A stretch of 50,091 nt of DNA from Chlamydiota bacterium (GTDB lineage: Bacteria > Chlamydiota > Chlamydiia > Chlamydiales > SM23-39), in contig JASFVE010000002.1 in NCBI GenBank assembly GCA_050049995.1, positions 1 to 50,091 on the forward strand, written 5' to 3'. The first letter of the stretch is position 1; every line of letters begins with the position of its first letter. Under the pieces are notes generated by a model, which was not told where the DNA came from, searched no databases, and saw only the letters and a program-made list of their open reading frames with translations. Of the stretch, positions 15,473 through 34,677 are shown in pieces. Made by a program: the position numbers and the translations under genes.

Positions 15473-15724
15473 AAGAATTTAAAATTTCATATTTTTGGAA
15501 AATTTGTACTTTTAATCAACTTTGGAAAATCTTTTAAGCTTTCTTTTATTTCAGTTAAATAGATTTTTTTGCAGTGATCATTTTAGTATCATCACTGGTT
15601 TGATTGCGCAGCAAAGGGCTGGGGACATAGCATTAGTACTGCTCATATTAATTATTCTCTGCATAATGTCCCTAAATTTTTTTCTTCGTAAAATGATTAA
15701 GGTATTTAACATCTGCTAATGCAT

Positions 15725-15748
15725 CCAGAACTTTTGCTTGGAAAATTT
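15725..15748 (+). repeat. recurrent intergenic motif copy A
   Basis: ccagaacttttgcttggaaaattt. Consensus across copies is about GTTCAGAACTTTTGATTGGGGAAAATTT. Confidence 0.6.
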
Positions 15749-15791
15749 AGAATAAGAGTATAAATTTTTTACCTCTTAACTGGAGGTTTAT

Positions 15792-16226
15792 ATGAAATGG
15801 GTGCTTTATTTTTCTTTTCTAGTAACAGCTGTATTTGCTCAAGATCGACATGCATATCAGAAACATTTTCCAAAGGATCTTTATGAATGCCTTATTAAAA
15901 AAGGGTTTTTCGATGAGGGGTCTTTTGAAAGCAAAAAAGAAATACAATATGCAGAAGAAGTAGCCATGATTAGCATTAGCCTGGATGAAGAACATGGCCA
16001 GCCCTATGCATTAATTGATTATAACCGTAACAAAGATACTGGTGACTTTAGTGGGATGAAAGCAGCGTATCGAGAGGGTCACTTAATCGCTTATGTTATT
16101 TTTGATGAACTAGGGAGGGACTATCTTGCTTTTCCTCCTTTTGCAGATGAAAAAGGAATAACATTACTTATATTAGACTTAATGGGTCAGGGATACTTAC
16201 AGCTCACGCAGGAAGCTAAGGGATAA
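15792..16226 (+). CDS. hypothetical exported protein
   Basis: 144-aa ORF with a signal peptide (MKWVLYFSFLVTAVFAQ). Confidence 0.5.
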   Translation: MKWVLYFSFLVTAVFAQDRHAYQKHFPKDLYECLIKKGFFDEGSFESKKEIQYAEEVAMISISLDEEHGQPYALIDYNRNKDTGDFSGMKAAYREGHLIAYVIFDELGRDYLAFPPFADEKGITLLILDLMGQGYLQLTQEAKG

Positions 16227-16242
16227 AAGACTATTGGCAAGA

Positions 16243-16833
16243 TTATTTTAAATGTTCTTGCTTAAAGCTATCTTGTTGCAATGTGTCATGAATATAAGGT
16301 AGGGCTTTTATTATCATCTCAGATTCATCAACGTCAACTCGTTTAAATTTTTGGCCCTGCTTTTCCATGATTTCTATCAGCTGTGTTGGTTCCAACCATT
16401 CAATATTACTGCCTGCTTCAGAGTCATCAGAATCTCGCACTTCTGGATCCCAAGAATCAAGTAGGCAAGCAATATAAAGAGTTGTTTTTTCAAAAGGTAA
16501 TCGAGTGTTGGGAAGATATCCAGATAAACAACCTAAAAAAGCTATTGGCTTGGCATATGCCCCAAATTCCTCTTTCAACCCCCTTGATAAAGTTTCTAAA
16601 GGTGTTTCATTATCTTCCATACTTTCTCGCATCAAGATATAAACATCTTTGCTATCTAAAATTTTACTAAAATGATGACAAGCAACCCTTCCGGTTTTGT
16701 CAAAAAGGATAGCTCCTATGGATAAATGATAAGGTTGTTTTTGACTTGCTTGAAAAAAAGGTCTTTTTTTCTTTTCAGCTGAAAAGAGGGTAAAAACTGA
16801 AAGTAGCAGAATGCTGGTTATTAATTTTTTCAT
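16243..16833 (-). CDS. exported Nudix-hydrolase-like protein
   Basis: 196 aa with a signal peptide (MKKLITSILLLSVFTLFSA). MRESMEDNETPLETLSRGLKEEFG resembles a Nudix box (Ex7REUxEExG). Confidence 0.4.
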   Translation of the reverse strand: MKKLITSILLLSVFTLFSAEKKKRPFFQASQKQPYHLSIGAILFDKTGRVACHHFSKILDSKDVYILMRESMEDNETPLETLSRGLKEEFGAYAKPIAFLGCLSGYLPNTRLPFEKTTLYIACLLDSWDPEVRDSDDSEAGSNIEWLEPTQLIEIMEKQGQKFKRVDVDESEMIIKALPYIHDTLQQDSFKQEHLK

Positions 16834-16874
16834 AAATCCTTTTGATGTTAAGAGAAAAAAGGGACAGTGTTAGT

Positions 16875-17912
16875 TTAGTTGGAAGCAAGATTATGCTTAA
16901 GTTCCTTAATAAAAGATTCTATAAAAGCAGGTTGGGTGTCCCAAGAAGTCATCCATCGTGCGACGAGCTGCTTATTGTCCCAGATCCAAAAAAAGCTTTT
17001 TTGTTGTAATTTTTCCAAAATTTCTAAAGAGGGTAGTTGGACAAAAACTGCATTAGACTCGACAGGATAAAGAATGGGTAATTCAGGAAAGTTACTCTTC
17101 AGATTCTCTTCCAGCAGCTTGGCCATCTTGTTCGCATGGGAGGCATTCCGTAGCCATAGATCTTTCTCTAAAAGAGCAGTCATCTGCGCTGATGCAAACC
17201 GCATTTTAGATGCGAGTTGCATTTGTTGCTTTTGAACATACTTAAACTTTTGAGCAAGTCCTTCTTTTAAAAATACGACAGCTTCAGCTCCCATAAGACC
17301 ATTCTTTGTTCCTCCAAAGGAAAGAAGATCCACTCCTACATTTGTCGTAAGGTCTTTTAGTGAGACATTTAAATGTGCTGCAGCATTGCAAAGTCGGGCG
17401 CCATCAACATGCAAGAGCAAGTCATTTTTATGTGCAAAATCTGCTAAATTTTTCATTTCTTGCAGAGTGTAAACAGTCCCTAATTCTGTAGATTGGGTAA
17501 TCGAAAGAAGAGCGGGCTGCACATGATGGAGATCGCCTTTTCCATGTAAATATTTCTCACATTGCTCTGGGGATATTTTCCCGTTCTTTGCTTCTATAGG
17601 CAGTAATGAACTCCCTGTGTTAGCTTGAGGGGCTCCACATTCATCATTCAAGATATGTGCACTAGTTGAACATATAACGGCCTGCCAAGGAAGGAGTGCA
17701 TGCTTGATACTGCAAACGTTAGCTGCCGTTCCATTAAAGACAAGAAAACTTTCAGTAAAAGGGCCGAAAATCTTTTTAAATATCTCTTGCATTCTCTCGG
17801 TCCAAGGGTCCGCACCGTAAGCCATTGCGTGGCCAGTATTAGCTTTTTGAATGGCATCCATAATTTCGGGGTGGACAGGAGAGAAATTGTCGCTGGCAAA
17901 CGAACTAAACAT
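16875..17912 (-). CDS. ltaE: low-specificity L-threonine aldolase (PLP-dependent)
   Basis: 345 aa. The N-terminus has FASDNFSPVHPEIMDAI. FGGTKNG is the PLP-lysine motif. The overall length fits the threonine aldolase family. Confidence 0.8.
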   Translation of the reverse strand: MFSSFASDNFSPVHPEIMDAIQKANTGHAMAYGADPWTERMQEIFKKIFGPFTESFLVFNGTAANVCSIKHALLPWQAVICSTSAHILNDECGAPQANTGSSLLPIEAKNGKISPEQCEKYLHGKGDLHHVQPALLSITQSTELGTVYTLQEMKNLADFAHKNDLLLHVDGARLCNAAAHLNVSLKDLTTNVGVDLLSFGGTKNGLMGAEAVVFLKEGLAQKFKYVQKQQMQLASKMRFASAQMTALLEKDLWLRNASHANKMAKLLEENLKSNFPELPILYPVESNAVFVQLPSLEILEKLQQKSFFWIWDNKQLVARWMTSWDTQPAFIESFIKELKHNLASN

Positions 17913-18082
17913 ACAAACTCATTTTAAACTTTAAAGTATATGTCACTGGGAATGTGTTGTCTACGGGAAATGGAAACCGTATGTAAATTCAAGGGTTTTA
18001 TAGAAGTATTCTAAAAATTTTTCTTGGGAAAAATTCACATTAAAAAATAAAATTTTTCAAACAATTAAAATTTTAGGTATTT

Positions 18083-18451
18083 ATGACAGCTTTAGTAACA
18101 AGTACAGAAACAAGTGAGTTTGCACACGTATCATTTACCGTTCTAGATGAGAATAATGAATTACTCGAAACTATGGTTTGTAAGTGTCAAAAAGCTTTTG
18201 AGCATATACAAGAATTATTTGATAATTCTGAGGTAGTAATCACTAATGTTGTAGTATGTCGTTCTTTTGTGATATTATCCGATGGTGATCCTTCCCATCA
18301 TAATCAGACAATGGGTGATTTCCCAGGGCCATATACTTCTAAAGAGTTTCTAAAAATGATGAAATATGATGAAGGAATTTCCAATGAGGAATGGTTTGCC
18401 CATTTAAAGGCAATTGATGAGGAAGCAATGGCTTCGCTAGTTGAAGAATAA
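18083..18451 (+). CDS. hypothetical protein, paralog of 19158..19526
   Basis: 122 aa. It shares length and the motif GP(Y/F)TS(K/E)(E/Q)FLKMM(K/Q)Y(D/E)xGIS with 19158..19526. Confidence 0.6.
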   Translation: MTALVTSTETSEFAHVSFTVLDENNELLETMVCKCQKAFEHIQELFDNSEVVITNVVVCRSFVILSDGDPSHHNQTMGDFPGPYTSKEFLKMMKYDEGISNEEWFAHLKAIDEEAMASLVEE

Positions 18452-18481
18452 AGTAACGTTCTATATTGGTACAAATAGACA

Positions 18482-18991
18482 ATGGAAGACTGGCAAGGAG
18501 ATGCACATCCACATTTTAGAGAGGTTCTCGAAAAGGTATATTTACCTGCAGGACTAAGCATTTATAATTTTGAAAAGGAAATTGAAAGTCAAGAATATGG
18601 TGCCAGTCGTTTTAGGTTGAATAATCAAAAGATTGTATTTCGTGTGGCAAAGACTACTCCTAAAAAAGTTGGACAGTTTGTTACTTTATGGAAAAGGGTA
18701 GATGGCCGTATCCAACCTTTTGATATGGTCGACCCTTTCGATCTAATTGTTATTAGTATCCGCATCTCAACGCATTTTGGACAATTTGTTTTTCCTAAAG
18801 ATGTGCTGCATAAAAAAGGAATTGTATCCAAGGACAAAATAGGGGGTAAGCTAGCTATTAGAGTTTATCCTCCGTGGGATCAAGTAAATAGTAAGCAAGC
18901 GTTAAAAACACAAAATTGGCAGATTCCCTATTTTTTTGAAATCAAGGAAGAAGCAAATTCTTTAAGTGTTAAAAAACTATTTTCCTCATAG
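18482..18991 (+). CDS. MepB-family protein
   Basis: 169 aa. ESQEYGASRFRLNNQKIVFRVAKTTPKKVGQFVTLWKR...GQFVFPKDVLHKKGI matches my recollection of the MepB domain pattern. Confidence 0.6.
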   Translation: MEDWQGDAHPHFREVLEKVYLPAGLSIYNFEKEIESQEYGASRFRLNNQKIVFRVAKTTPKKVGQFVTLWKRVDGRIQPFDMVDPFDLIVISIRISTHFGQFVFPKDVLHKKGIVSKDKIGGKLAIRVYPPWDQVNSKQALKTQNWQIPYFFEIKEEANSLSVKKLFSS

Positions 18992-19157
18992 CGAAAATAA
19001 AGCTACTTTATAATATAATTTTAAATTTTTAAAAAAACGTTTAGTTTTATTGGATAAATTAATATTAATTAATTTAATCAATTAAATTTAATTGTAGATT
19101 AATTATAATTAAATTATAAAATCTTAAATTAAATTAATTAATATTATTGGGGGAGAA

Positions 19158-19526
19158 ATGTCAGTTCCGGCAACAAGTGGAAATATAGTAAGTGAAGATG
19201 CACAAGTAGTGTTTAAAGTTAGGGATCAACTTAAAGTTTTACAGTTCGAAGAGGCCTTTCAGTATATACAAGGATTGTCTGATTGCCTTGATAATATAGC
19301 AATCAAGGATGTTGTAGCGAGCCGTTCTATTGTTATACTTGGTTCTGTTGTCACGCAATCTAATCCTCTTATGATGGCTACTACATTTCGGAATGAACAC
19401 AAGATGTGGGCAGCTACTGGGCCATTTACTAGTGAGCAGTTTCTGAAAATGATGCAATATGAAAGAGGAATTTCAAGCGATGCATGGGGTAATTTTCTAG
19501 AAGCAGTAGCTAAAAATGAGAACTAA
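19158..19526 (+). CDS. hypothetical protein, paralog of 18083..18451
   Basis: 122 aa. GGGGGAGAA-ATG is Shine-Dalgarno-like. See the paralog motif described for 18083..18451. Confidence 0.6.
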   Translation: MSVPATSGNIVSEDAQVVFKVRDQLKVLQFEEAFQYIQGLSDCLDNIAIKDVVASRSIVILGSVVTQSNPLMMATTFRNEHKMWAATGPFTSEQFLKMMQYERGISSDAWGNFLEAVAKNEN

Positions 19527-19574
19527 TGTGCTGGAAGGTTTTCCAGCCTTTATTATTCAAAGTGAATGAATCAC

Positions 19575-19597
19575 CCCGAACTTTTGTTCAAGGTTTT
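19575..19597 (+). repeat. recurrent intergenic motif copy B (diverged)
   Basis: cccgaacttttgttcaaggtttt. Confidence 0.45.
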
Positions 19598-19690
19598 CTG
19601 TGTGCTAGATTAAGAGGGTAGACCGCTCTCTGGAAATTAAAAAAATATTTTCTTTTTACTTGATCTATATTTTCTACCTTTTTAGCTTAA

Positions 19691-20125
19691 TTGTTTTTCA
19701 ATTTTCTAAAGAGGATATCAGTGTCGAGTCTTATTAATTTGTCAGATGCTACTATACAAGCCCTAGAGGTTGGAGCTGCTGCTTTCATAGTTGGTTCTGA
19801 CCTTGTAGCTGCTACAATTGTTGGTGGCACATTTGCTTTAGTCTCTCAAGTAACTAAGCCTTATTTTAGAGAATCAGGTACTCTATCTTTCATTTTGAAC
19901 ATGGTAATGACTTCAGCTTTGATAAATCTGTCTTCCAAGCACTTTGTTATACTTAATAAAGCAGCTTGTGCAACTTTTTTGCCAGCCTCAACAGTTATAA
20001 AAATCATAGCTGTCGTGGCAATTTTTGAAGTTATAGCTGTCGTAGGGTTAGCACTAGGGTTAATGGTAATAATATATCAAGCATTTAAAGCCATGTGCAT
20101 TGAAGATAGACCTTTTGCTCGATAA
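19691..20125 (+). CDS. small hydrophobic membrane protein (Inc-like candidate)
   Basis: The ORF is open from a TTG at 19691. A GTG at 19721 preceded by AGAGGA is an alternative start. The product has long hydrophobic lobes (AAAFIVGSDLVAATIVGGTFALV; IIAVVAIFEVIAVVGLALGLMVII). Confidence 0.45.
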   Translation: MFFNFLKRISVSSLINLSDATIQALEVGAAAFIVGSDLVAATIVGGTFALVSQVTKPYFRESGTLSFILNMVMTSALINLSSKHFVILNKAACATFLPASTVIKIIAVVAIFEVIAVVGLALGLMVIIYQAFKAMCIEDRPFAR

Positions 20126-20134
20126 AGCAAATAT

Positions 20135-20482
20135 TTAAAAGTCTTCTTGAGTTGACTCAGAGATAGATAGTTCTTCTCCTTTTTTAATGTCTCGCAGAGC
20201 AATGTTTGCTTCTTTTTCAAAATCTGGGACTACATTAGGATTGCTTGAGCGATTTACATGTCTTTCAGGATCAGGGTAAAAGTATATGCTCCCATTTCTT
20301 GTATGACAGAAATTCTCTTGTTCATACCTGGGAAGTTCTCTATATTCTTTAGGGGATAAAATAGATAGATTCCACTTTATGACTACATCTCCTTGCTTGA
20401 AGTCTTTTTTTGCAAAGACACCAAGCCCATCTTGAAATTGACCAATTCCTGATCTTTTTATTTCAACATCTTTCGAATTCAT
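20135..20482 (-). CDS. minimal SET-domain protein (putative protein lysine methyltransferase, possibly degenerate)
   Basis: 115 aa. GLGVFAKKDFKQGDVV is the SET N-region. VNRSSNPNV sits in place of NHSCxPN. GEELSIS sits in place of ELxxDY. Confidence 0.6.
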   Translation of the reverse strand: MNSKDVEIKRSGIGQFQDGLGVFAKKDFKQGDVVIKWNLSILSPKEYRELPRYEQENFCHTRNGSIYFYPDPERHVNRSSNPNVVPDFEKEANIALRDIKKGEELSISESTQEDF

Positions 20483-20772
20483 AGGTACTCCTTCATCTAT
20501 TAGTTTAGAGCTGAGAAGTATACAAAAGTATAAGAAAAGTGTTCAAAATTTTTTATTGAGCTCTTACTTTTTCAGGGATGAAGAAAAAATGAGTACTTCA
20601 GCTTAAGCTATTGGCAATATTTAAGCGTTATAACAAATGTAATGATGCTTGAAATGAACTTCATTAATCATAAGAAAATGTCACTCAGATATCCTTAAAA
20701 AAAACTAATTTGAATTTTAAATCATGTAATACGTAATATATTCAGATTTTTTATTAATTATAATAAGTTATC

Positions 20773-23610
20773 ATGAATAAAGTGATATTTTTATTTCTTG
20801 CAGTTTTTGCATCCGGCTATTGTCTTTCAATCGAAGAAGAGTCGCATAGGGATAGACTTTTAAAAACTCTGCAGCTTATGCAAGAAAGATTCCTGTTTTC
20901 CACTTATGAAAAAGAAAGTATAGAGAATAATAAAATTATTTTTCAGGAAGTGGATGAAATTATTGAGCTAGTGCTTAAAACATATCCTGAAGACGTATCA
21001 TTAAGAGTTCCTTGTATTCGCTTATTGTACATTCAAGGTAACCACTATAATTATAGAGATCAACCTGTATTGGCTCAGAAGAAATTGCTTATAGCAAAAG
21101 AACTTTGTGAAAAAGAACTCTCTTTATTTTGCGAATCAGCAGAAGAAATCTGTGAATCCCTGGTTAATATTGATGGCCATCTGCCTTCTTTTTATGCGAT
21201 GGTTTTGCGCCTTCTTGGAAAAGCTTATATTACACCTTTCGACTCTCACAACCAACTGTTAAAAGATGAAGGGGAAGCCTTATTAAGAAAGGCTATAAAA
21301 ATTCGAGAGTACATCGACAGTCAATTAGAAAGGGGGTGTTATCAGGATTCACTTGATAATGCTATTGTCGGTAATACTCATATCTTCAAAAGGGATCTAG
21401 CTTCTTATGTCATTCTCGAAAAAGGAACACTGGATCAGGCTGAAAATGTTTTTTTAGAGATACTAAAGATCGATGACCCTATCAATCAACAAATATGTCT
21501 GAGAAGACTTTTAGGTATTTATCAAAAAAAAGGACAGGAAGCAGCGACTCTTATAGAACGACAACACCAATATAAAAATGCTATTGAGATAGCTGATAAA
21601 GTAATTCGATATGTAGAAACAAATCCTGAAGTTTTTCGCATCTCGTTTATGTTAGCCCAAGTTGGGCAACTTTACTTTGACCCTCAAAATCCTTTTCGCG
21701 ATTTAGAGCTTAGTCGCAAATTCTTTGAGCAGGCTAAAAAAACATGTTTTGATGAATTAAAGTCGATTTCCATTTTGTTACATCAAGGACTGTCCAAGGT
21801 TTACCAGGAAATTGCCAAGCAAGAAGAGTGGGAATATTCTGAAATATCTAGCACAACATATTTACGAGAGCTATCTCGGCCGTCTGAGCGGCAAGCTATT
21901 GCTTATGAGCAACTGGGAGATCTTTATTTTGATCAGAAAAAATATATTGTTGCCACCACACTTTATAGCAATAGTTTAAGCATTCTCCGTAAGTTTCCTG
22001 TTTTGCTTGATAGTCCATTATGGGTACGTCTCATGCAAAAAATGGAAAAAATAGAGCGAACAGTTTTTCCAGCTAAAAACGAGGACCTTTTATCCTATAC
22101 TCAACATCTGTCTACATATCGAAAGCGGCTGGAGAAAATGCGTCAAAAAGCAAAGGGTATGATTGGTGATAAACCAGTAAAAGAGGTCTTTGAGTATATC
22201 ACGTTGGAGTACAAAGAATTGATACAACTAATATTAAAAGATCTTGGAGCAAACGACTCTTTTCCATCTTTTACGCTCATCTGTGGAGGTTCTATGAGTT
22301 GGAATGTCGCAACCCCTTATTCCGATGTTGAGCTCGCCTTTTTAATTGATTCAGAAAAGTCCGAAATAGAAAAAACAATGGTTAAGAAGTTAGCAACGTT
22401 GTTGACACTTAGACTCAATGCGATTGGTGAGGCTCCAGCAGGTGATTTAAAATTAGATTCTCTTTCTTGGTTAGGCTCTGGTGAAAGTCCTTCTCCTAGG
22501 GGGATCATGCTCGATCCATTTCAGTTAGCTACCCCTCAAAAGTATTTCATTGGAACACCTGAAGAGTTTGCTTTACTTCAAAAAAAACTTGTGTCTGTTC
22601 AAAAAAATGATTCTAATACTATGACCCAATTTGGTAGTTCATTTATCCATGCTTCCTATGTGTTTGGTGATCCAAAGCTCCTTTTACGCTATAAAAATCA
22701 ATTACAAAAAACCTTTAGTTCTCAGGAAAGAAAGGAAATTTCTAATGACAGGCTTAAAAAAGATCTAACTCGTTGGGAGATAAAACGTCAACAGGATGCC
22801 AACGGAGAAAGATGTAGCGTAAAGCATGATCTTTACAGAGTACTTGATATCATTCTTTATGACTTGGCGTTTCGATTTTCAATGCATGAGGTAAAAGACC
22901 CGTGGGAGATTTTTGAAATGCTAGAGGCTTGTGGCATTATAGACCATAAAATGGCAACCAATGGACTGAAGACTCTCGATCTGATTGGTGAATTGAGAAT
23001 CAAAACCTATCTTTTAGCTCAATGTCAAAGAGAATGGGTTGACCCTAAAATGGCAAAAGTTGCAACGATCCGAGATTTTTTAAGATCTTGGTATGAACAT
23101 GTTAAAGCTCTTTTCCCAGAGGTGAATGTAGAGGGCGAACCTTCTTCAAACAATGTTGAGTCCTTATTGCAAAAACTTACTTCTAATAAAGCATTTTATG
23201 GTTCCAGACATCCTGTTGTATCTCAAAGCCATGCCCAACTTGGTTTGGCTTTAATCAAGATTAAACATTTTCATGAAGCTGCTCACGAGTTTGAAGAGGC
23301 TATAAAGATCGATAGTTTTATGTATGGTACTCATCATGCCAGAATAGATGCCTATTCTAGGCAACTTGAGCTTTGCCGAGAAAAAATCAACTCGCAAAAT
23401 ATACTTTCCGTTACACCATGTCACAGTCATTGCAAGGAGTTAGAGTTTATAATTTCCCATCCTTCTTTCAAAGCTTTTGATTTAAAGCTGCAAGCTCTAT
23501 CAGCTTTGAAGCAAGGTGATTTATCTAAAGCTAATGTCTTTTTTGATTTATCGAAAATTGTCTTTGATAGCTATCACAAAAATCGCTTACCATTTTTATT
23601 AATGGAGTAA
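20773..23610 (+). CDS. secreted TPR-like repeat protein with central Pol-beta-type nucleotidyltransferase (GlnD/DUF294-like) domain
   Basis: 945 aa with a signal peptide (MNKVIFLFLAVFASGYC). CGGSMSWNVATPYSDVELAFLID at about nt 22280-22345 fits hG[GS]x9-13Dh[DE]h. TPR-like helices flank it (YEQLGDLYFDQKKYIVATTLYSNSL; HAQLGLALIKIKHFHEAAHEFEEAIKID). Confidence 0.55.
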   Translation: MNKVIFLFLAVFASGYCLSIEEESHRDRLLKTLQLMQERFLFSTYEKESIENNKIIFQEVDEIIELVLKTYPEDVSLRVPCIRLLYIQGNHYNYRDQPVLAQKKLLIAKELCEKELSLFCESAEEICESLVNIDGHLPSFYAMVLRLLGKAYITPFDSHNQLLKDEGEALLRKAIKIREYIDSQLERGCYQDSLDNAIVGNTHIFKRDLASYVILEKGTLDQAENVFLEILKIDDPINQQICLRRLLGIYQKKGQEAATLIERQHQYKNAIEIADKVIRYVETNPEVFRISFMLAQVGQLYFDPQNPFRDLELSRKFFEQAKKTCFDELKSISILLHQGLSKVYQEIAKQEEWEYSEISSTTYLRELSRPSERQAIAYEQLGDLYFDQKKYIVATTLYSNSLSILRKFPVLLDSPLWVRLMQKMEKIERTVFPAKNEDLLSYTQHLSTYRKRLEKMRQKAKGMIGDKPVKEVFEYITLEYKELIQLILKDLGANDSFPSFTLICGGSMSWNVATPYSDVELAFLIDSEKSEIEKTMVKKLATLLTLRLNAIGEAPAGDLKLDSLSWLGSGESPSPRGIMLDPFQLATPQKYFIGTPEEFALLQKKLVSVQKNDSNTMTQFGSSFIHASYVFGDPKLLLRYKNQLQKTFSSQERKEISNDRLKKDLTRWEIKRQQDANGERCSVKHDLYRVLDIILYDLAFRFSMHEVKDPWEIFEMLEACGIIDHKMATNGLKTLDLIGELRIKTYLLAQCQREWVDPKMAKVATIRDFLRSWYEHVKALFPEVNVEGEPSSNNVESLLQKLTSNKAFYGSRHPVVSQSHAQLGLALIKIKHFHEAAHEFEEAIKIDSFMYGTHHARIDAYSRQLELCREKINSQNILSVTPCHSHCKELEFIISHPSFKAFDLKLQALSALKQGDLSKANVFFDLSKIVFDSYHKNRLPFLLME

Positions 23611-24038
23611 ATTTAATTATAGATTGGGCGCTACAGTATTCCCTACGTTTACCCCCCTAAAGTCCAAGTTAATTCTTAAATATTTAAAAAGAATTGTCTG
23701 AGGAGTGGGTCATTTAATTAATAATTACATAGATTCCACCGATCTGAAAATTGAGAGACAATTAAACAACTTATCAAGCAAAACTATTTCATAATAAATT
23801 AGATCAGTTATGTGAGTATCTTTTATTCATTTTAATTGTCCTTTATAGTTGCCTTATTAATGTATTCGTGAAGTCAACAAAGATGGAGGATTATGTTGCA
23901 AACAATAAAAGACTATACAAAATTCTGCCTCTTTAATAAATGGAGAGATATAGAATTCAAAAGAGCCATGATCAGTTCTTGTGAACCAAGACCGATGGAA
24001 TTAATAAAAAGAGAAACTAAATCTTTTATTCAATTAAT

Positions 24039-24359
24039 ATGAAGTCTTTTATCGTGCTTTACTCACACAAAAACAAAAGATGTCTGACTGAAGAGATGCT
24101 TCAAGGTCATATTTTATTTCTAAAGAAACTAAAAGCTAGAAATATGTTAGTTATTTGCGGGCCTTTTATCGACAATGAAAGAGCCATAATAATTCTAAGA
24201 AGTTCAAGCAAAACGGAAGTTGATAAACTAGTAAATGAAGAGCCTTTTGTAAAAGGGAAATATTACGAGCGTTATGAAATCGTTGAATTTATCGAAGCAA
24301 ATCAAGAAAACGACTGGCTCATGTCCCATTCCCAAATAAAAAATAATAATCTTCATTAA
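24039..24359 (+). CDS. YciI-like protein
   Basis: 106 aa. HILFLKKLKARNMLVICGPF...EVDKLVNEEPFVKGKYYERYEIVEF matches the YciI-family pattern. Confidence 0.55.
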   Translation: MKSFIVLYSHKNKRCLTEEMLQGHILFLKKLKARNMLVICGPFIDNERAIIILRSSSKTEVDKLVNEEPFVKGKYYERYEIVEFIEANQENDWLMSHSQIKNNNLH

Positions 24360-24421
24360 GACACAGCCCAAACTTTTCATAAAACTACTTAAGGTTGATT
24401 AAAAGATAGTAGTTGGATGAA

Positions 24422-24448
24422 TTCAGAACTTTTACATGGGGAAAATTT
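24422..24448 (+). repeat. recurrent intergenic motif copy D
   Basis: ttcagaacttttacatggggaaaattt, 61 nt upstream of ATG 24509. Confidence 0.7.
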
Positions 24449-24508
24449 AAAAAAGTAATATATGATTATAATTCAATCTTAATGAGTTAGAACCTATTCT
24501 AGGAAAAT

Positions 24509-25084
24509 ATGGAAATACAATCAGCTTTAAATAATGTGCAAACCTTTGATGAATTGCTTCCAATTGCAGGAAGAAGTACTCCTCATATTTCATTTTTTGG
24601 CTCAAGGTATGTGACTGTAAGGGGATATGAAGGCTTTCTAAAAATAGATGCTCTTATTGAAAAAGTAGAAGAGATCATTGCAAGAAAGCCTCTTTGGAGT
24701 GAAGAAACCAGATCAGCTGGAAAACGTGTATTACTAGAAAAGAGCAGGCTATATTCACAATACTATGAGAAGAAAAAGAACTGCAACTGGATCACTTGGA
24801 TATTTTTACTAGCTAGAACAGGTTTTATTTGGGAAAAGGGAAGAACTAGGAGGACATATTTTAATGTAAAAATTGTTCCTTTGTTCGATGTAACAAGAAT
24901 TGAATATGTTGGTGATACTGAATATGATCTGGAAAGAGGATTTAGATATATTGATGTTCTAGAATATATTGACTATCATAATGACAATTGGATGCCGGAT
25001 CCAGCGCACGTTCGAATTAGTAGTACCCCAATATCTTTCTTAGAAAGCGGCATAACTGTTCCATGCACTTGGGAGTACTATTAA
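24509..25084 (+). CDS. hypothetical protein, family A (paralog of 25361..25996 and of both halves of 33684..34655)
   Basis: 191 aa. The N-terminal module is MEIQSALNNVQTFDELLPIAGRSTPHISFFGSRYVTVRGYEGFLKIDALIEKVEEIIARKP. Confidence 0.65.
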   Translation: MEIQSALNNVQTFDELLPIAGRSTPHISFFGSRYVTVRGYEGFLKIDALIEKVEEIIARKPLWSEETRSAGKRVLLEKSRLYSQYYEKKKNCNWITWIFLLARTGFIWEKGRTRRTYFNVKIVPLFDVTRIEYVGDTEYDLERGFRYIDVLEYIDYHNDNWMPDPAHVRISSTPISFLESGITVPCTWEYY

Positions 25085-25273
25085 TAGGTTTCAGATAATT
25101 TGATTTTTAAGAAATTCTTCCTCTATTAAATTAGAAAAGAGAGATAATCAGTCATTGTTATTTGACGAGAAAATTCTGTCAATTATTCCAAATGCCACTT
25201 TTTGAGATTTCCTTCTTGTTTGTATATTTGATAGGCTTTTATGAAGGTTTATTAATAGAGATGGAAAGGTTAG

Positions 25274-25300
25274 TTAAGAACTTTTACATGGGGAAAATTT
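25274..25300 (+). repeat. recurrent intergenic motif copy E
   Basis: ttaagaacttttacatggggaaaattt, 61 nt upstream of ATG 25361. Confidence 0.7.
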
Positions 25301-25360
25301 AAAAAAGTAATATATGATTATAATTCAATCTTAATGAGTTAGAACCTATTCTAGGAAAAT

Positions 25361-25996
25361 ATGGAAATACAGTCAGTTTTAAGTAATGTGCAAACCTTTG
25401 ATGAATTGCTTCCAATTGCAGAAAGAAGTACTCCTCATATTTCATTTTTGGGGAAGAGATATATCAGGGTTGAAGGCTTTGAAGGTTGTTTAAAAATACA
25501 ATCCCTCGTTGAAAAAGTAGAAGAAATCATTGCTAGAAGGCCCCCTTGGAATGAGAGGACTAGACATTCAGGTAAACTAGTAGCAAGGGAAATTGAAAGG
25601 ATTGATGCGCAGTATAACAACCTAAAGATGAACAGTAACTGGTTTTCATGGATATTACTTTTTATTAGATTCGGATTTTTTTTAGGAGAAGGTAGAGAAG
25701 TAAATTATTTTTTAGAAGAGATTAAACATTTATTCGATGTGACGACTCTTCAATTTGTTGATGATGTTCAATATGATGCAGAAAGAGGTTTTAAGTATTT
25801 ATTAGTTTGTGAAAGAATTGAACACTTCATACCAGGTTGGAGGATGCCAGATCCAGCTCGTGTTAGAGTGTCTGATCGTCGTGTAGCTGAGATTCGATGT
25901 GGCAAGCCTTTTCCAATTGATTTGATTTTTTTAGATACGTTGTCTGCTGCAAAAAGATTGCTCTTACGAAAAATAGAATTTTTTAATTGTAGTTAA
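25361..25996 (+). CDS. hypothetical protein, family A paralog
   Basis: 211 aa. The 84-nt leader is identical to that of 24509, and the first ~88 coding nt are near-identical. The remainder has diverged. Confidence 0.65.
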   Translation: MEIQSVLSNVQTFDELLPIAERSTPHISFLGKRYIRVEGFEGCLKIQSLVEKVEEIIARRPPWNERTRHSGKLVAREIERIDAQYNNLKMNSNWFSWILLFIRFGFFLGEGREVNYFLEEIKHLFDVTTLQFVDDVQYDAERGFKYLLVCERIEHFIPGWRMPDPARVRVSDRRVAEIRCGKPFPIDLIFLDTLSAAKRLLLRKIEFFNCS

Positions 25997-26094
25997 AAAA
26001 TACATTTAAAATGTAGAAAACTATTCGTTTTCTTGTTTAATTTTATTAATTAGACTATAATTGTTCCATAATTAATTTTTTTAATAATAAAATT

Positions 26095-26577
26095 ATGGGA
26101 CCTTTATATTTAACTAAACCTCTAATGTATTGGGCTGCTTCAATAGGATTGTCTACAACAGTTGGAAACTTTATTGAGACCTCTTCAGAATCTACAATTA
26201 GTCAAATAGCTGGAAAAATCTTTCAACAACCTGCTTCTGTAGTTTTTTTAATGGCCTCAGCATCATCTCTTGATCTTGGGGATGTGGGTGCTGGTGTTGC
26301 TCTCATAACACCTCTCCTGACATATGGGATGCAAAAAATAGCTAATCTTAGTCACCTTCCAAAACTTGAAAAATTTTTTAGTGTTTTGGATCGAGTTTTG
26401 ACGATAGCAGGAAAGGTTATGAGCTGTGCTATAATAATTTTTGGATATTACACTTCAACGTCTATAGCAAGCCCATTAAGCTTTCTTTTCTTAGGTCTTT
26501 TTGCATTAAATGCTGTTTTATACACAAAGCAACTTACTCCTTATTTTTACTCTTCTAAAGACCAAGTCAACTCTTAA
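26095..26577 (+). CDS. small hydrophobic membrane protein (Inc-like candidate)
   Basis: 160-aa ORF with paired hydrophobic lobes. Confidence 0.5.
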   Translation: MGPLYLTKPLMYWAASIGLSTTVGNFIETSSESTISQIAGKIFQQPASVVFLMASASSLDLGDVGAGVALITPLLTYGMQKIANLSHLPKLEKFFSVLDRVLTIAGKVMSCAIIIFGYYTSTSIASPLSFLFLGLFALNAVLYTKQLTPYFYSSKDQVNS

Positions 26578-26581
26578 AATA

Positions 26582-26606
26582 TCAGAACTTTTGATTGGGG
26601 TAATTT
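26582..26606 (+). repeat. recurrent intergenic motif copy F
   Basis: tcagaacttttgattggggtaattt, starting 5 nt after the stop of 26095..26577. Confidence 0.7.
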
Positions 26607-26654
26607 AGAAATTTTTCTATGATCAGGAACTTAAATATCAATTTCAGGAGAAAT

Positions 26655-27224
26655 ATGAGTGAATCAAGTGAGAAGAAGCTATTCGCCGTATATTTAGGTG
26701 GGCGGGCAGATAGATGCAATATCGAATTACATGATGTGGTTTTTGTAGCTGGCTCATCAATTGAGGAAACTTATCCATTATTGGCTAAGAAATGGTTTGG
26801 CAATTTAAAGGGATTCCATATTGATTCCTATGTTGAGTTGCAAAATATTGACGGTTATAAAATTGAACTTAGTCAATCTCCTCCTAAAGATCATTCTTTA
26901 AAAAAGCTATATTTTATTAATCTGGGTGCTTATAAACCTGGAGAATTCACTGAATATCATCAAAGTACATTTTATGTGGCAGATTCTGCACCAGATGCTA
27001 TAAGAAGAGCTAAATCTGAATTGTGTCAAGGACTTCAAACAGTTCATAAGGATGACGTAGTAACACTTGATAAGGTTAGCGATCCTGTTGATTTTGATGT
27101 TGATGATGTGTTGGAACTTCGGGAAGTTGATTCCTATTATATTTCTTTAACCCCTACATCATCTATTGAACAAATGATACCCATTTCGGCTTACATTAAA
27201 CTAGATTTACTTGTAACAAAGTAG
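26655..27224 (+). CDS. DUF1543-like protein (two repeats)
   Basis: AGGAG lies 4 nt before ATG 26655. KKLFAVYLGGRADRCNIELHDVVFVAGSSIEETYPLLAKKWFG is followed by a second copy, KKLYFINLGAYKPGEFTEYHQSTFYVADSAPDAIRRAK. The ORF is open from 26619. Confidence 0.5.
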   Translation: MSESSEKKLFAVYLGGRADRCNIELHDVVFVAGSSIEETYPLLAKKWFGNLKGFHIDSYVELQNIDGYKIELSQSPPKDHSLKKLYFINLGAYKPGEFTEYHQSTFYVADSAPDAIRRAKSELCQGLQTVHKDDVVTLDKVSDPVDFDVDDVLELREVDSYYISLTPTSSIEQMIPISAYIKLDLLVTK

Positions 27225-27240
27225 AAATGGGCTCCCTTTA

Positions 27241-27263
27241 CCCGAACTTTTTAGTTGGTGAGC
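27241..27263 (+). repeat. recurrent intergenic motif copy G (diverged)
   Basis: cccgaactttttagttggtgagc. Confidence 0.4.
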
Positions 27264-27322
27264 AATAGATAATTCAACCTTCTTTCTTATCTTTTAATCA
27301 CCATAGATTGGAGGTGAAAAAT

Positions 27323-27356
27323 GCGTTCAAAACTTTTAATCAATGGAGAGATTTTT
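27323..27356 (+). repeat. recurrent intergenic motif copy H (extended form)
   Basis: gcgttcaaaacttttaatcaatggagagattttt, preceded by ggaggtgaaaaat. Confidence 0.55.
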
Positions 27357-27460
27357 CTATTTTTAAAAGATAAAAAATTTTTTATCAATCAAACATTTGT
27401 TAATTTATAATATTACAAACTGATGTATAATCTGATTTCTATTTATAAGGTTTTATAAAA

Positions 27461-28054
27461 ATGAAGAAATTAATTTACTTATTCTTAGTTTGTATTAGTA
27501 GTTCTTTGCTTGGTCAGGAAAGTTTTTCTGGTGAGTCATTTCCCTCGAAAGTGGAGATTGAGGTAGTTCCTTATGTTTACGGAGATATATTTCAACCAGG
27601 GTATGGTTTAAGTATACGAGCCGGAATTTCAGCTCATACATTTGAGTTAGCTCCTATGTCAATTCCTCCTTCAAGGGGATATTTTGGGAATAGTTCTGCT
27701 AGAATAGGGGTTACAGGTTCATATTATTACACATTTCGCCGAGGTAAAATTTTTCAACCTTACCTAGGTTTCAGTTTTACCCATCTGCGAGATACTCATA
27801 GAAGTGTTTATCAGGAATATCAAGGGGATAAGCTTTATAAAGAAGGGAAAAGCCCAGTTTTAAAAGAAAACTTTATCGATAGCATAATAGGAATGCAGGT
27901 CTGTATACCGAATAAAAAATTTGTGAAAGCATATTTATTTGGAGATGTTTTAGGTTGTCCAATGTGCATTGCAGATTTAATTGGGGAAGGATTTAAGTAT
28001 GCAGAGGTGGGTTTACGCCCTCTTCCTAGAGTAGGGGCCGGATTGCAATTCTAA
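27461..28054 (+). CDS. small outer-membrane beta-barrel-like protein
   Basis: 197 aa with a signal peptide (MKKLIYLFLVCISSSLLG), alternating Gly/aromatic strands, and a C-terminal ...RVGAGLQF. Confidence 0.5.
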   Translation: MKKLIYLFLVCISSSLLGQESFSGESFPSKVEIEVVPYVYGDIFQPGYGLSIRAGISAHTFELAPMSIPPSRGYFGNSSARIGVTGSYYYTFRRGKIFQPYLGFSFTHLRDTHRSVYQEYQGDKLYKEGKSPVLKENFIDSIIGMQVCIPNKKFVKAYLFGDVLGCPMCIADLIGEGFKYAEVGLRPLPRVGAGLQF

Positions 28055-28113
28055 CAGAGCTTTTGATTGATTAAAGATGAAGGACGTCTACACAACTCTT
28101 GATTGGGGAAAAG
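28055..28113 (+). repeat. recurrent intergenic motif, two adjacent copies (I1, I2) between convergent genes
   Basis: cagagcttttgattgatt (28055-72) and acaactcttgattggggaaaagt (28092-113). Confidence 0.5.
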
Positions 28114-28151
28114 TGCAGTGTGTTCAAATATTTGAAAGTTATAGCTTCTTT

Positions 28152-28748
28152 CTAACCCCGAGTAAGTTGTCCCGTAGCTGGATCTATAAACATACCTGCA
28201 CCAGGCCGATGGTCCATGTCATCTAAAAGTTGAATCTGTCCTTCTTTGGAGCCTTCTGTGACCTTTGAAAATACAATTGTGCTTTCACTTACAATGTTTG
28301 AAAGGCTAAGTTCTCGTTCACCAATTTTGACGATTTTACCTTCCACAGTAAAGGATGACCAGTTGTCTTCCGAGATTGGTCTGACATTAACCCTGTTAAA
28401 ATCAAATAAAGTACCATTTTCATCTCGATATCGTAGTCCCTCTAGGGGTTCAAAGGCTGCTACTCGCTGTGCTCGTGCAATAATTGCTTCCGCAAGTTGA
28501 TTCGTAGTTCGGGCATTTGCCTCTAAATCATCATCGTTTAAAGATTCGGTGAGGTTAATAAAATGGGTGATGCCAATCTTCTCTTTTGAGCCATCTGCTT
28601 TGATGATTTCTAAAAAGATAGGTTGCCCGAGATCAAGTTGTCGTCTACCGCATAGATAAAATCCGATAGGCTCTGTGCGGTTTGCGTTTACAATCTGAAG
28701 GGCATTGGTTAATAAACTTTCATAAGTTGATGTTGATACAGATGCCAA
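28152..28748 (-). CDS. hypothetical protein
   Basis: 198-aa ORF with a TTG start and no signal peptide. It looks more G+C-rich than its neighbours by eye and is the only minus-strand gene in the 24-30 kb block. Confidence 0.5.
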   Translation of the reverse strand: MASVSTSTYESLLTNALQIVNANRTEPIGFYLCGRRQLDLGQPIFLEIIKADGSKEKIGITHFINLTESLNDDDLEANARTTNQLAEAIIARAQRVAAFEPLEGLRYRDENGTLFDFNRVNVRPISEDNWSSFTVEGKIVKIGERELSLSNIVSESTIVFSKVTEGSKEGQIQLLDDMDHRPGAGMFIDPATGQLTRG

Positions 28749-28840
28749 AACAAAACTCTCTTTTTTTGTTATACAATTATACTACTTTCCTAGTTATAAA
28801 GGCCAGATCAGTGGGGCTGGTTTAGTAGAGGAAAGGAGAC

Positions 28841-28868
28841 GTGTTCAGACTTTTGATTGTGAAAAACT
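28841..28868 (+). repeat. recurrent intergenic motif copy J (extended form)
   Basis: gtgttcagacttttgattgtgaaaaact, preceded by gaggaaaggagac. A degenerate further copy, atgcgttaaggatttctgagaag, lies at 28922-28944. Confidence 0.6.
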
Positions 28869-29073
28869 AGCATTTTTAAAACTTTATCAGACGTTCGGGG
28901 TTCAATGGTTTCATAACTTGAATGCGTTAAGGATTTCTGAGAAGAGTCCTAAGGCTATTTAGGTGTATGATTTTTTTTTACGTCTTTTGAAGAAGGAACA
29001 AGCTTTATTATTCATAGAGTAGTCATATGCAATTTTTGTACTTTTTATTGAACTGCCAGTATAATACCTTCCC

Positions 29074-29832
29074 ATGTTTAAGCTTTTTTTCTTTCTTTTT
29101 TCAATTTTTCTATTTACTGTAAATGCATATGCTGATGAGTCAGTATTATCTTCTCCTAGTACTCAATCAACTTTGCTTGCCCAGTATAACAATAGAATTT
29201 CAGTTAATTTTCCTCTTATTGGGCTTTCCTATGAAAGGATCAAACCAAATTCTTATTATGTAGGAATCGATGCGAACATTTTTTTCCCTTCATTCAATTT
29301 TAGCGATATCACCAACTTTGAAGCTCGTATTGGGTATCACTTTTTTGATGGAATAGGGCATCATTTTATTTTAACTGAAGGGGTAGGATATCTCCGCAAT
29401 CATGAATTTTTAGCTGAATGCTTTTCTTATAGTCTCGAAGATATTCCAGAGTTTTTGTATGAATCTATTGGATTTTCTTATGAAGATGAGGTAGTCATCC
29501 ATCAATTTTTGGTCGTAGAGGTTGGTGTGAATGCTCAGGGTTTACTGGCTTATCGGTTCCCAGCGAAATGGAATGCTTCTTCCAAAGAATATGGGAAGAT
29601 AACAGGAGCATTTCCTGTTTATGGCTTTAAAGGGAGCCTTCCTATTACATTTCGATTTGGTCGACAAAAAAACTGGGATTTTCGGATTCAGCCTTCCTTT
29701 TTATACTTAGCAAGTCACACAGTTAAAATGGACTACGTTTATGCGCTTTTTGGCTCTAAAAGAGTCAATTCAACGGAAAAAAAGCAAATCCAGGAAGGTT
29801 ATATTTATTTTTCAATTGGACGTAGATTCTAA
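29074..29832 (+). CDS. outer-membrane beta-barrel-like protein
   Basis: 252 aa with a signal peptide (MFKLFFFLFSIFLFTVNAYA) and a C-terminal ...YFSIGRRF. Confidence 0.5.
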   Translation: MFKLFFFLFSIFLFTVNAYADESVLSSPSTQSTLLAQYNNRISVNFPLIGLSYERIKPNSYYVGIDANIFFPSFNFSDITNFEARIGYHFFDGIGHHFILTEGVGYLRNHEFLAECFSYSLEDIPEFLYESIGFSYEDEVVIHQFLVVEVGVNAQGLLAYRFPAKWNASSKEYGKITGAFPVYGFKGSLPITFRFGRQKNWDFRIQPSFLYLASHTVKMDYVYALFGSKRVNSTEKKQIQEGYIYFSIGRRF

Positions 29833-29900
29833 AGTTCTATTTTGAAAATAAAAGACTGCTCGTGAAACTAAAGTCTTAAAATTGAGAAAGGAGGAAAGAT

Positions 29901-29929
29901 GCGTTCAGAACTTTTGATTGGGATAATTT
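29901..29929 (+). repeat. recurrent intergenic motif copy K (extended form)
   Basis: gcgttcagaacttttgattgggataattt, preceded by aaggaggaaagat. It lies 51 nt upstream of the rhuM fragment ATG. Confidence 0.7.
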
Positions 29930-29979
29930 CGCTAAAAAGGCTATAACTTTTTCTAAAATTTATATCAGTAGAGGAGCCT

Positions 29980-30504
29980 ATGGATAGAGGAGAAGTAATA
30001 CTTTACACAACAGCAGATGGTCAGACCTCCATCCAATTGCGAATTGAAAATGGAAGTGTATGGTTAACGCAGTTAGAACTAGCAGAGTTATTTCAGACTA
30101 CCAAGCAGAATATTAGCCTTCACATCAAGAATATTTTGGAAGAGGAAGAGCTTGATAATTCAGTAGTCAAGGAAGACTTGACAACTGCATCTGATGGGAA
30201 ACGCTATCAAACTAAATTTTACAATCTCAGTATGATTCTAGCTGTTGGCTATCGGGTTAGTTCTCATCGTGGAACGCAGTTTCGACAGTGGGCAACAACC
30301 CATTTACAGGAATACTTAATCAAAGGCTTTGTAATGGATGATGCTCGATTAAAAGAGCCGAAGCCATGGGATTACTTTGACGAGTGGTTAGAACGAATTC
30401 GGGAAATTCGAGCTTCGGAAAAGCGATTTTATCAGAAGGTGCGTGATATCTATGCCACAGCTGTTGACTATAACCCGAAAAGTGAAGAGGCTCAGCTTTT
30501 TTTT
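29980..30504 (+). pseudogene. rhuM: RhuM-family virulence protein, 5' half only
   Basis: GEVILYTTADGQTSIQLRIENGSVWLTQLELAELFQTTKQNISLHIKNILEEEEL...YNLSMILAVGYRVSSHRGTQFRQWATTHLQEYLIKGFVMDD matches the RhuM N-terminal pattern. The similarity stops after ...EEAQLFF at a T8 run (30497-30504). As I recall, full-length RhuM proteins are roughly twice this length. Confidence 0.75.
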
Positions 30505-30934: not shown

Positions 30935-30994
30935 TATATTTAATAATAATGAAAAAGCCTACCAGGTTTGATAGGGTTTAACAAGGTTTACTAA

Positions 30995-33675: not shown

Positions 33676-33683
33676 GAGAAAAT

Positions 33684-34655: not shown

Positions 34656-34677
34656 AAAAGAAGGGACTTTAGACTTT

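Follow-up and report, generated by a model that had tools for sequence, protein, structure and literature searches.

The stretch of DNA analysed here (the window) spans positions 1 to 50,091 of contig JASFVE010000002.1, forward strand, in the draft assembly GCA_050049995.1 of a Chlamydiota bacterium. Its right-hand part carries the gene for transfer-messenger RNA (tmRNA), ssrA, on the minus strand (36415-36784), whose 3' end in reverse complement reads TGGAGGTGGAGAGA. To the left of this gene, between 15.7 and 29.9 kb, lies an accessory zone in which a short motif recurs on the plus strand. The genes after its copies are mutually unrelated save for one pair (family A), and include a DUF1543 protein, a truncated RhuM, small outer-membrane-like proteins and orphans. 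A first-pass annotation had noticed the motif, could assign it to no known element, and offered two readings: a promoter or operator element defining a regulon, or boundary scars of a cassette-like insertion mechanism. The second is essentially right. The motif belongs to a known class, the serine-recombinase islands of ssrA and tRNA genes, and each copy is very probably a distal junction, that is, the attL/attR-type attachment (att) scar at the far end of a large serine recombinase (LSR) element inserted at the tmRNA 3' end, in which a displaced tmRNA-end core is followed by the 3' tail of the recombinase gene.

The recurrence on the plus strand is real, although the copies are fewer than the 11 or more intergenic ones first claimed. 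The 28-mer given by the first-pass annotation has no match in the window at up to 3 mismatches. A shared block, ..ATGCGTTCAGAACTTTTGATTGGGGAAAATTT.., is visible at the reported copies, and an 18-mer core, TTCAGAACTTTTGATTGG, matches six times at up to 3 mismatches, always on the plus strand, where 0.23 matches are expected and none of 100 shuffles reaches six. Profile searches and inspection by eye give eight accepted copies, all plus, which translate in the recombinase frame to DAFRTFDW-like tails. The E-values that follow come from a 2.3-Mb search with an extended-element profile, built from relatives and covering a 50-nt element. The leftmost supported copy, at 15719-15748 (ATGCATCCAGAACTTTTGCTTGGAAAATTT), is decayed; it reads ..SRTFAW (E = 0.015) and its tmRNA-end core is unrecognisable. 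The copy at 24409-24447 (..GGATGAATTCAGAACTTTTACATGGGGAAAATT, reading DEFRTFTW; E = 0.006) lies ahead of the family-A gene at 24509. Because the copy at 25269-25299 sits inside an 852-bp tandem duplication of this one, which includes the downstream gene (24422-24721 versus 25274-25573, 84%), it is not independent, leaving seven independent copies. Next come 26582-26606 (CAGAACTTTTGATTGGGGTAATTT, reading RTFDW; E = 2e-4), at the left edge of the DUF1543 cassette, and 27306-27346 (GATTGGAGGTGAAAAATGCGTTCAAAACTTTTAATCAATGG), decayed in core and tail, which keeps the tmRNA-end TGGAGGTG and reads ..NAFKTFNQW but falls below the threshold of the extended-element profile. The similarly decayed copy at 28080-28112 (GAAGGACGTCTACACAACTCTTGATTGGGGAAAAG, reading KDVYTTLDW; E = 0.05) lies between convergent genes, and the core and tail at 28832-28866 (AGGAAAGGAGACGTGTTCAG-ACTTTTGATTGTG; E = 0.004) carry a 1-nt deletion. 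The best-preserved scar, at 29890-29930 (AGGAGGAAAGATGCGTTCAGAACTTTTGATTGGGATAATTT, reading RRKDAFRTFDWDNF..; E = 3e-9), forms the left edge of the truncated rhuM cassette.

Four further copies had been listed at 19575, 27241, 28055 and 28922, and these are not distinguishable from chance. They have just 9-12 or so bases in common and reach no significance genome-wide with the extended-element profile; a second profile, derived from the window, picks up 28053-28073 alone among them, at a chance-level E of 36. The look-alike at 19575-19595 (CCCGAACTTTTGTTCAAGG) has no profile match, that at 28055-28072 (CAGAGCTTTTGATTGATT) directly follows the stop codon of an open reading frame (ORF, 27461-28054), and the degenerate one at 28922-28945 (ATGCGTTAAGGATTTCTGAGAAG) is unsupported. 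The look-alike at 27241-27262 (CCCGAACTTTTTAGTTGGTG) lies in the 3' flank of the DUF1543 cassette and is conserved with that cassette in the relative PFAC01000018; its status as a scar is not demonstrable.

Across the whole assembly (1.88 Mb, 122 contigs, of which the window is contig C2), searches with these two profiles place every copy of the motif within 15.7-29.9 kb of the window, apart from one on contig C1 (C1:647). The earlier observation that backbone blocks at 1-15 and 36-50 kb are free of copies holds, with one marginal exception, a plus-strand match at 3203-3220 (TTTAGAACTTTTGATAGA) that reads FRTFDR in the recombinase frame and stands directly after an ORF (2773-3207) and ahead of another (3274-4860). 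If this match is real, accretion would reach as far left as 3 kb, and the 1-15 kb block (APH, NUDIX, GntR, DUF2000) could itself be old cargo in large part.

The origin of the motif becomes legible in relatives. An exact-pattern scan with CAGAACTTTTGATTGGNNNAAWTT over one genome per species (185,579 species) returned 53 loci, about 35 of them in labelled chlamydial metagenome-assembled genomes (MAGs) from several families (Parachlamydiales, Rhabdochlamydiaceae, Waddliaceae, Anoxychlamydiales); most of the others are in unclassified 'uncultured bacterium' MAGs with the same core. At the 53 loci the motif is nearly always preceded by a block of 14-15 nt, either aT-TGGAGGTGGAGAGA-CGCATT or tT-TGGGGGCGGTTGGA-CGCATT, and the two blocks are exact reverse complements of the 3' ends of tmRNA and tRNA-Tyr (acceptor strand and 3' half of the T stem). 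The full element in relatives reads TGGAGGTGGAGAGA-CGCATTCAGAACTTTTGATTGG, its leading 14 nt matching, in reverse complement, the 3' end of tmRNA or in its place that of tRNA-Tyr or tRNA-Asn. A few kb further downstream, the opposite strand carries the target gene: tmRNA at L006, L009 and L045, and tRNA-Tyr at L003, L013 and L041. The geometry of the window agrees: its copies are all plus, and its tmRNA gene is on the minus strand to their right. The displaced target end at the distal boundary is intact at dozens of loci and decayed yet recognisable in the window at 27306, 28832 and 29890. The extended 5' part that had been described for three window copies, GAGGnnAAnA-ATGCGTTCA, is therefore genuine and is a decayed copy of the tmRNA 3' end; the GGAGG ahead of these copies is decayed tmRNA acceptor stem and hence not a ribosome-binding site. 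This identity also disposes of a candidate in which GGAGG-N-ATG before the three copies, with its codon-like variation, would be a Shine-Dalgarno sequence and start codon of a short peptide (MRSELLIG..), the true frame being +1 (FRTFDW). Local alignment of the motif to the window's own tmRNA gave no match, because decay has altered the cores here and the motif itself is part of the element.

The single copy outside the window points to a third target. At C1:600-1290 a terminator hairpin is followed by the tRNA-Asn end AACTCCGG, by CAGAACTTTTGATTGGTTGAAATT (the copy at C1:647), by a gene for a 148-aa secreted protein and then by tRNA-Asn on the minus strand, 570 nt from the motif copy. The cassette is conserved at 96% in PFAC01000051 (L032), and tRNA-Asn is also the target at one metagenome locus; tRNA-Asn is thus a target of the family alongside tmRNA and tRNA-Tyr.

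Three side observations concern the cores and their surroundings. Hybrid cores of the form TGGAGGTG-GTTGG occur at L015, L031, L046, L053 and L054, combining a tmRNA-type acceptor strand with a tRNA-Tyr-type T-stem and reading WRWL; either other families have tmRNA genes with such a T-stem, or the sites are recombinant. A conserved hairpin, AAAAAGCCTAyCAnnTnTGATAGGsTTT, stands about 15 nt upstream of many cores (window 30950-30990; L018:6285-6326; L019:4720-4763; L044; L050). On the other strand it is the rho-independent terminator just past the tmRNA end, and it appears that the tmRNA gene is supplied with a terminator, either brought or kept by the incoming element. In four genomes (L005, L021, L026, L041) the motif is followed after 56-64 nt by the start of a YqeY-family gene; there the motif is intact and the core variably decayed, and the YqeY unit may be an ancient cassette, inherited widely, beside tRNA-Tyr.

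Clustering of all ORFs in the loci led to the gene to which the motif belongs, an LSR. The intact LSR at L120 has 495 aa with Resolvase, Recombinase and Zn_ribbon_recom domains and ends inside the tmRNA gene (...ECPTNWRWRESNSRP; in DNA, ..TGTCCAACCAAT TGGAGGTGGAGAGA ATCGAACTCTCGTCC.., translating to ..CPTNWRWRESNSRP). About 7.7 kb upstream of it lies an older, frameshifted copy of the same gene whose frame runs across core and motif (...ECPTNWRWRDAFRTFDWSRVKIP..; in DNA, ..TGTCCAACCAAT TGGAGGTGGAGAGA CGCATTCAGAACTTTTGATTGGAGC.., translating to ..CPTNWRWRDAFRTFDWSRVKIP..). Since the frame of the older copy spans both, the motif is the final stretch of the LSR gene and the att site lies within the gene; beyond the core, the motif encodes the C-terminal tail D-x-F-R-T-F-D-W. 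The same alternation is visible among homologues (1120 at E <= 1e-10, several labelled Chlamydiota), whose C-termini we compared for 120. The C-terminus is WRWRESNSRP in 26 of these and WGRLDSNQRRPKSRDLQS, the exact antisense of tRNA-Tyr, in at least 17; others end in ..DSNLRP- or ..DSNPR-type tRNA antisense, and a few (P0137, P0148, P0198) carry a DAFRTFDW-type tail. LSR C-terminal fragments abut motif copies from upstream or run into them at eight loci (L062, L079, L087, L116, L118, L120, L127, L135), further fragments lie within the arrays of L047, L106 (against tRNA-Asn) and L132, and at L018, a close relative of the window, a fragment lies about 340 bp upstream of a motif copy. Among solved structures the closest chain by sequence is the catalytic domain of TP901-1 integrase (E = 4e-4).

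The attP-like junction at L120, TCCAACCAA-TTGGAGGTGGAGAGACGCATTCAGAACTT-TTGATTGGA, measures 47 bp (TCCAACCAAT..TTGATTGGA; in full, TCCAACCAATTGGAGGTGGAGAGACGCATTCAGAACTTTTGATTGGA) and has 9-bp imperfect inverted repeats (TCCAACCAA / TTGATTGGA) 29 bp apart. A size of about 47 bp with terminal inverted-repeat symmetry is what is expected of an LSR attP. The site is centred on the final bases of the stretch that it has in common with the tmRNA gene, which is where the crossover dinucleotide of an LSR would have to fall if the tmRNA end is to be restored. The tail reads D-x-F-R-T-F-D-W in 52 copies unselected by the search patterns, and there TTC AGA ACT is conserved at 0.94-0.98 at all three codon positions. 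This even conservation suggests a double constraint on the tail, as coding sequence and as the predicted LSR-binding half of attP.

Relatives also retain complete elements. In L184, a locus on a 556-kb JGI contig, a 14-bp repeat, TGGAGGTGGAGAGA, bounds an element of 10.9 kb. Its left end consists of a terminator hairpin followed by TGGAGGTGGAGAGA-CGTGTTCAGAACTTTTAACTGG at position 529, so that the displaced target end is intact here too. The genes then run from DUF3800 through a 1310-aa helicase/methyltransferase, a SpoVG-like gene, a Toprim and AAA_25 primase-helicase and MerR/HTH_17 to the LSR (10001-11491), and at the right end TGGAGGTGGAGAGA-ATCGAAC.. belongs to the tmRNA gene (Rfam RF00023, 11456-11829, minus). 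Beyond the tmRNA gene stand ileS, lepB and a CT021-family gene, the same backbone as at 36.4-43 kb of the window. L182 has the same arrangement with type I restriction-modification as cargo. An LSR at the end proximal to the tmRNA or tRNA gene is thus present in L120, L182 and L184, and none was found in the assembly of the window.

We surveyed arrays by running the 50-nt element profile over 133 loci listed (53 genomic and at least 80 metagenomic), and the figures in this paragraph refer to these. Motif copies lie on the plus strand in 229 cases and on the minus strand in 6; 55 loci have at least two copies and 28 at least three. The motif was found solely at tmRNA, tRNA-Tyr and tRNA-Asn integration loci. 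The 97 units between neighbouring copies range from 243 bp to 6.4 kb (median 1.5 kb), and about half contain a single ORF. Their ORFs face both ways (82 plus, 79 minus), as do those of single-ORF units (25 plus, 22 minus). A side observation concerns the smallest units: directly beside the tmRNA gene of one MAG, tandem gene-less units of about 243 bp consist of core, tail and some 195 nt with a terminator (L019:7704-7995; L009:6976-7221).

Comparison with the orthologous region of the close relative PFAC01000018 bears on the unit of rearrangement. Both regions hold the DUF1543 cassette (92%), the rhuM cassette (94%) and a YCII block (84%), in a different order and among different neighbours. 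The DUF1543 cassette (window 26582-27272; oriented 7013-7701 in PFAC01000018), composed of tail scar, a gene of 201 aa and a 3' flank, has different neighbours on both sides in the relative. For this cassette and for the start of the rhuM cassette (29889-30375; 9200-9686 in PFAC01000018), homology starts exactly at the core or motif and the DNA upstream is unrelated. The rhuM copy of PFAC01000018, orthologous to the scar at 29890, has an intact core (TTGGAGGTGGAGAGACGCATTCAGAAC), and the first 145 nt of the cassette (29893-30037) match a Parachlamydiales MAG locus (L016) at 96.5%, again with unrelated DNA upstream. Since homology starts at the core or motif, the rearrangement unit is bounded by these sites. 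At least one breakpoint is an exception, the left edge of the YCII block, which is away from any site. Between the array and the tmRNA gene lies an adjacent island of 5.4 kb (30995-36438) with a different att type, which comprises 21 nt of the tmRNA end and no tail motif; at its left end (30950-31015, plus), a hairpin (AAAAAGCCTACCAGGTTTGATAGGG), which is the tmRNA terminator read backwards, is followed by the displaced 21-nt tmRNA end.

The homology of motif and recombinase tail, the geometry of the copies and the intact reference elements of relatives are direct observations, and the following mechanism would account for them. The att site would lie inside the last codons of the LSR gene, the circular form reading ...CCAACCAAT-TGGAGGTGGAGAGA-CGCATTCAGAACTTTTGATTGG... 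and encoding ...PTNWRWR-DAFRTFDW.... Integration would place the LSR gene against the tmRNA gene, so that its frame would end on tmRNA antisense, ...WRWRESNSRP*, while the original tail, with a 14-nt copy of the core ahead of it, would move to the element's opposite end. As insertions recurred at the restored tmRNA end, older elements would be pushed outward, leaving a same-strand series of cores and tails with cargo between them. On this account the window probably received at least seven insertions, after which the recombinase and replication modules were deleted. As no LSR remains in the assembly, the array would be a series of decayed scars and is presumably now frozen. For a cassette that lacks an LSR, movement may be possible only in company with a terminal element that carries one, by accretion and mobilisation in cis.

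Several observations weigh against this account of successive LSR insertions. No LSR gene or fragment was found in the 1.88-Mb draft assembly, window included, by tblastn or by a profile search of six-frame ORFs, and the link to the window consequently rests on the homology of short, decayed sequences. Their significance is uneven: the scar at 29890 alone is strong, and the others have E-values of 2e-4 to 0.05 or were accepted by eye. LSRs normally require both attB half-sites; here the half-site in the flanking chromosome shows no conservation. Differences among the 52 tails, 29 synonymous versus 71 non-synonymous, are on their own no demonstration of protein-level selection. Finally, about 95% of junctions elsewhere lack an upstream LSR remnant, many of them with near-perfect cores, and such junctions, together with the tandem 243-bp empty units, are poorly explained by plain insertion and decay. 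LSR-less junctions may have arisen when older units were excised along with a terminal LSR element (accretion), or when the 45-bp repeats underwent homologous exchange.

The same junctions invite a reading in which the recombinase-less cassettes are themselves mobile, in trans or in cis by LSR elements, and the array is an active gene-capture platform. Near-perfect core and tail sites bound units of 243 bp to 3 kb with no trace of an LSR, L019 has six copies including the tandem 243-bp empties, PFAC01000018 has the same cassettes as the window in other order and context, the breakpoints lying at the site, and the 15 Dehalococcoides ssrA islands without integration modules have been read as cis-mobilisable (PMC3146451). 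However, the attP-like site's left inverted repeat, TCCAACCAA, is missing from LSR-less junctions, which are therefore half-sites, some breakpoints (the YCII left edge) are off-site, the genome has no LSR, and homologous recombination between 45-bp repeats, or deletions, could produce the same patterns; we consider mobility of the cassettes themselves doubtful, though well short of negligible. In its fullest form, arrays of single-gene units with core and tail half-sites would be a working platform for gene capture and exchange in environmental Chlamydiota. A terminal LSR element would then excise with any number of older cassettes, and an LSR beside an older scar would regain its DxFRTFDW tail, so that the tail would act as a built-in switch by which the enzyme passes from its integrated form to one competent for integration and back. 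We put this forward tentatively, as a possibility with the balance of probability against it.

Successive insertion of LSR elements has also to be set against three explanations that do without an LSR. A shared promoter or operator (TTGATT as -35, or GAACTT as an ECF-type -35) co-regulating secreted, membrane and orphan genes would fit the position of most window copies 37-233 nt upstream of plus-strand genes, the place of the C1 copy between a terminator hairpin and a gene start, and the presence of TTGATT and AGAACTT in the motif. But spacing to a -10-like hexamer varies from 16 to 22 nt, the motif is missing from the rest of the genome and confined to integration loci, it is physically continuous with the recombinase ORF and the tRNA or tmRNA end, and the unbiased direction of cassette ORFs removes the regulon that the first-pass annotation had considered. 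This makes a promoter role very unlikely as the origin of the motif; some scars may nonetheless be used secondarily as promoters. An integron-like or transposon-like array, with the motif as an attC-type site or as the terminal repeat of a decayed multicopy element (a miniature inverted-repeat transposable element, MITE, or an insertion sequence, IS), is suggested by single-gene units of mixed, often orphan function with a conserved site between them. In one genome, CBDBKM01, copies stand on five contigs beside IS630 transposases; five copies on three contigs (L022, L023, L027, L029, L052) share identical downstream DNA whose opposite strand encodes a pentatricopeptide-like repeat protein, a unit that seems to have been spread by other repeats. 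Against such an array, the strong strand bias across the loci goes with the absence of any inverted copy, partner or hairpin in the window, no IntI-type or other tyrosine recombinase was found near the arrays, gene orientation is unbiased, unlike that of integrons, the site carries a tRNA or tmRNA end, and plasmid, phage and viral collections hold no match to the motif. We regard an integron, MITE or IS origin as highly improbable.

Classical P4-like tyrosine-integrase islands, with the motif copies as arm sequences, would be the more familiar explanation for insertions at tmRNA and tRNA genes, which are the usual targets of such integrases. At L038 a motif copy and a frameshifted gene for a P4-like integrase are 650 nt apart, and the genome of the window has a tyrosine integrase beside tRNA-Ser on contig C17. 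However, the frame across the motif is that of a serine recombinase, and an iterative search seeded with XerD found no tyrosine recombinase near the motif in the 133 loci listed except the L038 pseudogene, nor any in the 426 kb of the 80 metagenome loci listed. As a driver of the array the L038 integrase was rejected: it is a pseudogene, and the 642 homologues of its stitched sequence belong to tRNA-Met - int - DUF1016 (YhcG nuclease) islands with no motif nearby. Tyrosine-integrase islands can hardly be the source of the copies. On contig C17 (4632-5933), tRNA-Ser(tga) is followed by a P4-like tyrosine integrase of 369 aa, whose relatives (the 642 homologues, 61-78% identical to the L038 pseudogene) form an int-DUF1016 operon beside tRNA-Met in other chlamydiae; no displaced fragment was found on that contig. 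Three other candidates for the motif were set aside: an integron attC or hairpin site, since the window has no inverted repeat there; a Xer/dif-like site suggested by a CGCAT resemblance, where inspection by eye found no dif-like symmetry; and a retro-element primer-binding site, also judged by eye, the CCA complement not being in the core.

Read as scars, an unexplained repeat becomes a legible history, in which the tmRNA gene of an obligate intracellular bacterium probably received at least seven elements in succession, whose remains make up the accessory zone of this contig. The family spans many chlamydial lineages, inserts at three targets (tmRNA, tRNA-Tyr and tRNA-Asn) by way of a sharply defined site of about 47 bp, and carries restriction-modification and other defence-type cargo in its intact copies. 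Given this spread through lineages and this cargo, the family is probably one of the main channels by which environmental chlamydiae gain and lose genes. A serine integrase whose target is short, known and conserved among chlamydial tmRNA genes might also be worth trying as a tool for site-specific integration in this group, where genetics is hard.

Among known systems, the LSRs of phages (TP901-1, A118/LI, Bxb1, phiC31) share the Resolvase, Recombinase and zinc-ribbon domains and an attP-like site of about 47 bp with terminal inverted repeats, although in sequence the chlamydial LSR bears very little similarity to solved LSRs. Composite arrays at a single chromosomal site, with recombinase-less members included, are likewise a feature of the SCC/Ccr cassettes. 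The targets of phage LSRs and SCC are usually protein-coding genes or rlmH, whereas those of the chlamydial family are the last bases of tRNA and tmRNA genes, and phage attP normally lies outside the integrase ORF, whereas here the att site is inside it. The IntP/IntX integrase of myxophage Mx8 and the SSV1-type integrases of archaea do have attP within their own gene, and integration at tRNA genes alters or splits their reading frame. Those enzymes are tyrosine recombinases; the chlamydial enzyme is an LSR of which just the last 10-35 or so codons are swapped.

The tycheposons of Prochlorococcus resemble the chlamydial family in that cargo elements sit at tRNA and tmRNA genes, older ones are pushed outward with partial tRNA copies between them, and degenerate remnants build up islands; primase/helicase replication modules and defence and niche cargo are further likenesses. 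Their recombinases are tyrosine recombinases in 910 of 937 elements, with LSRs in few, and in the available part of the source an att site within the recombinase gene is not described for them (Hackl et al., bioRxiv 10.1101/2020.12.28.424599). Tycheposons are the ecological counterpart of the chlamydial elements.

The closest precedent is found in Dehalococcoides, where tandem ssrA islands carry a 20-bp ssrA repeat with an adjacent conserved motif and a serine recombinase, DsiB (McMurdie et al. 2011, PMC3146451). DsiB has about 500 aa, and its 3' end overlaps the att site and continues into ssrA or the next island; 15 islands have no integration module, and the authors suggested that DsiB is complete perhaps only on the circle or beside an older island (PMC3146451). 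The two systems are alike in layout, with a recombinase ORF that crosses the att site, a C-terminus that is exchanged, and same-orientation arrays beside the target. They differ in phylum, in the additional targets tRNA-Tyr and tRNA-Asn, in the core (14-15 bp versus 20 bp) and in the adjacent motif. In the chlamydial reference elements no second small recombinase (DsiA) was seen, and SpoVG-like, Toprim/AAA_25 primase-helicase and MerR/HTH_17 genes are present instead; chlamydial units are also much smaller than the Dehalococcoides islands and often hold one gene. Our literature search found no paper on such elements in Chlamydiae, nor on the motif string, and the chlamydial family appears to be undescribed, whereas the design itself has already been published for Dehalococcoides (PMC3146451). 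That integration edits the enzyme's own tail is an idea that dates from that 2011 work, and the chlamydial family now supplies many natural variants of it.

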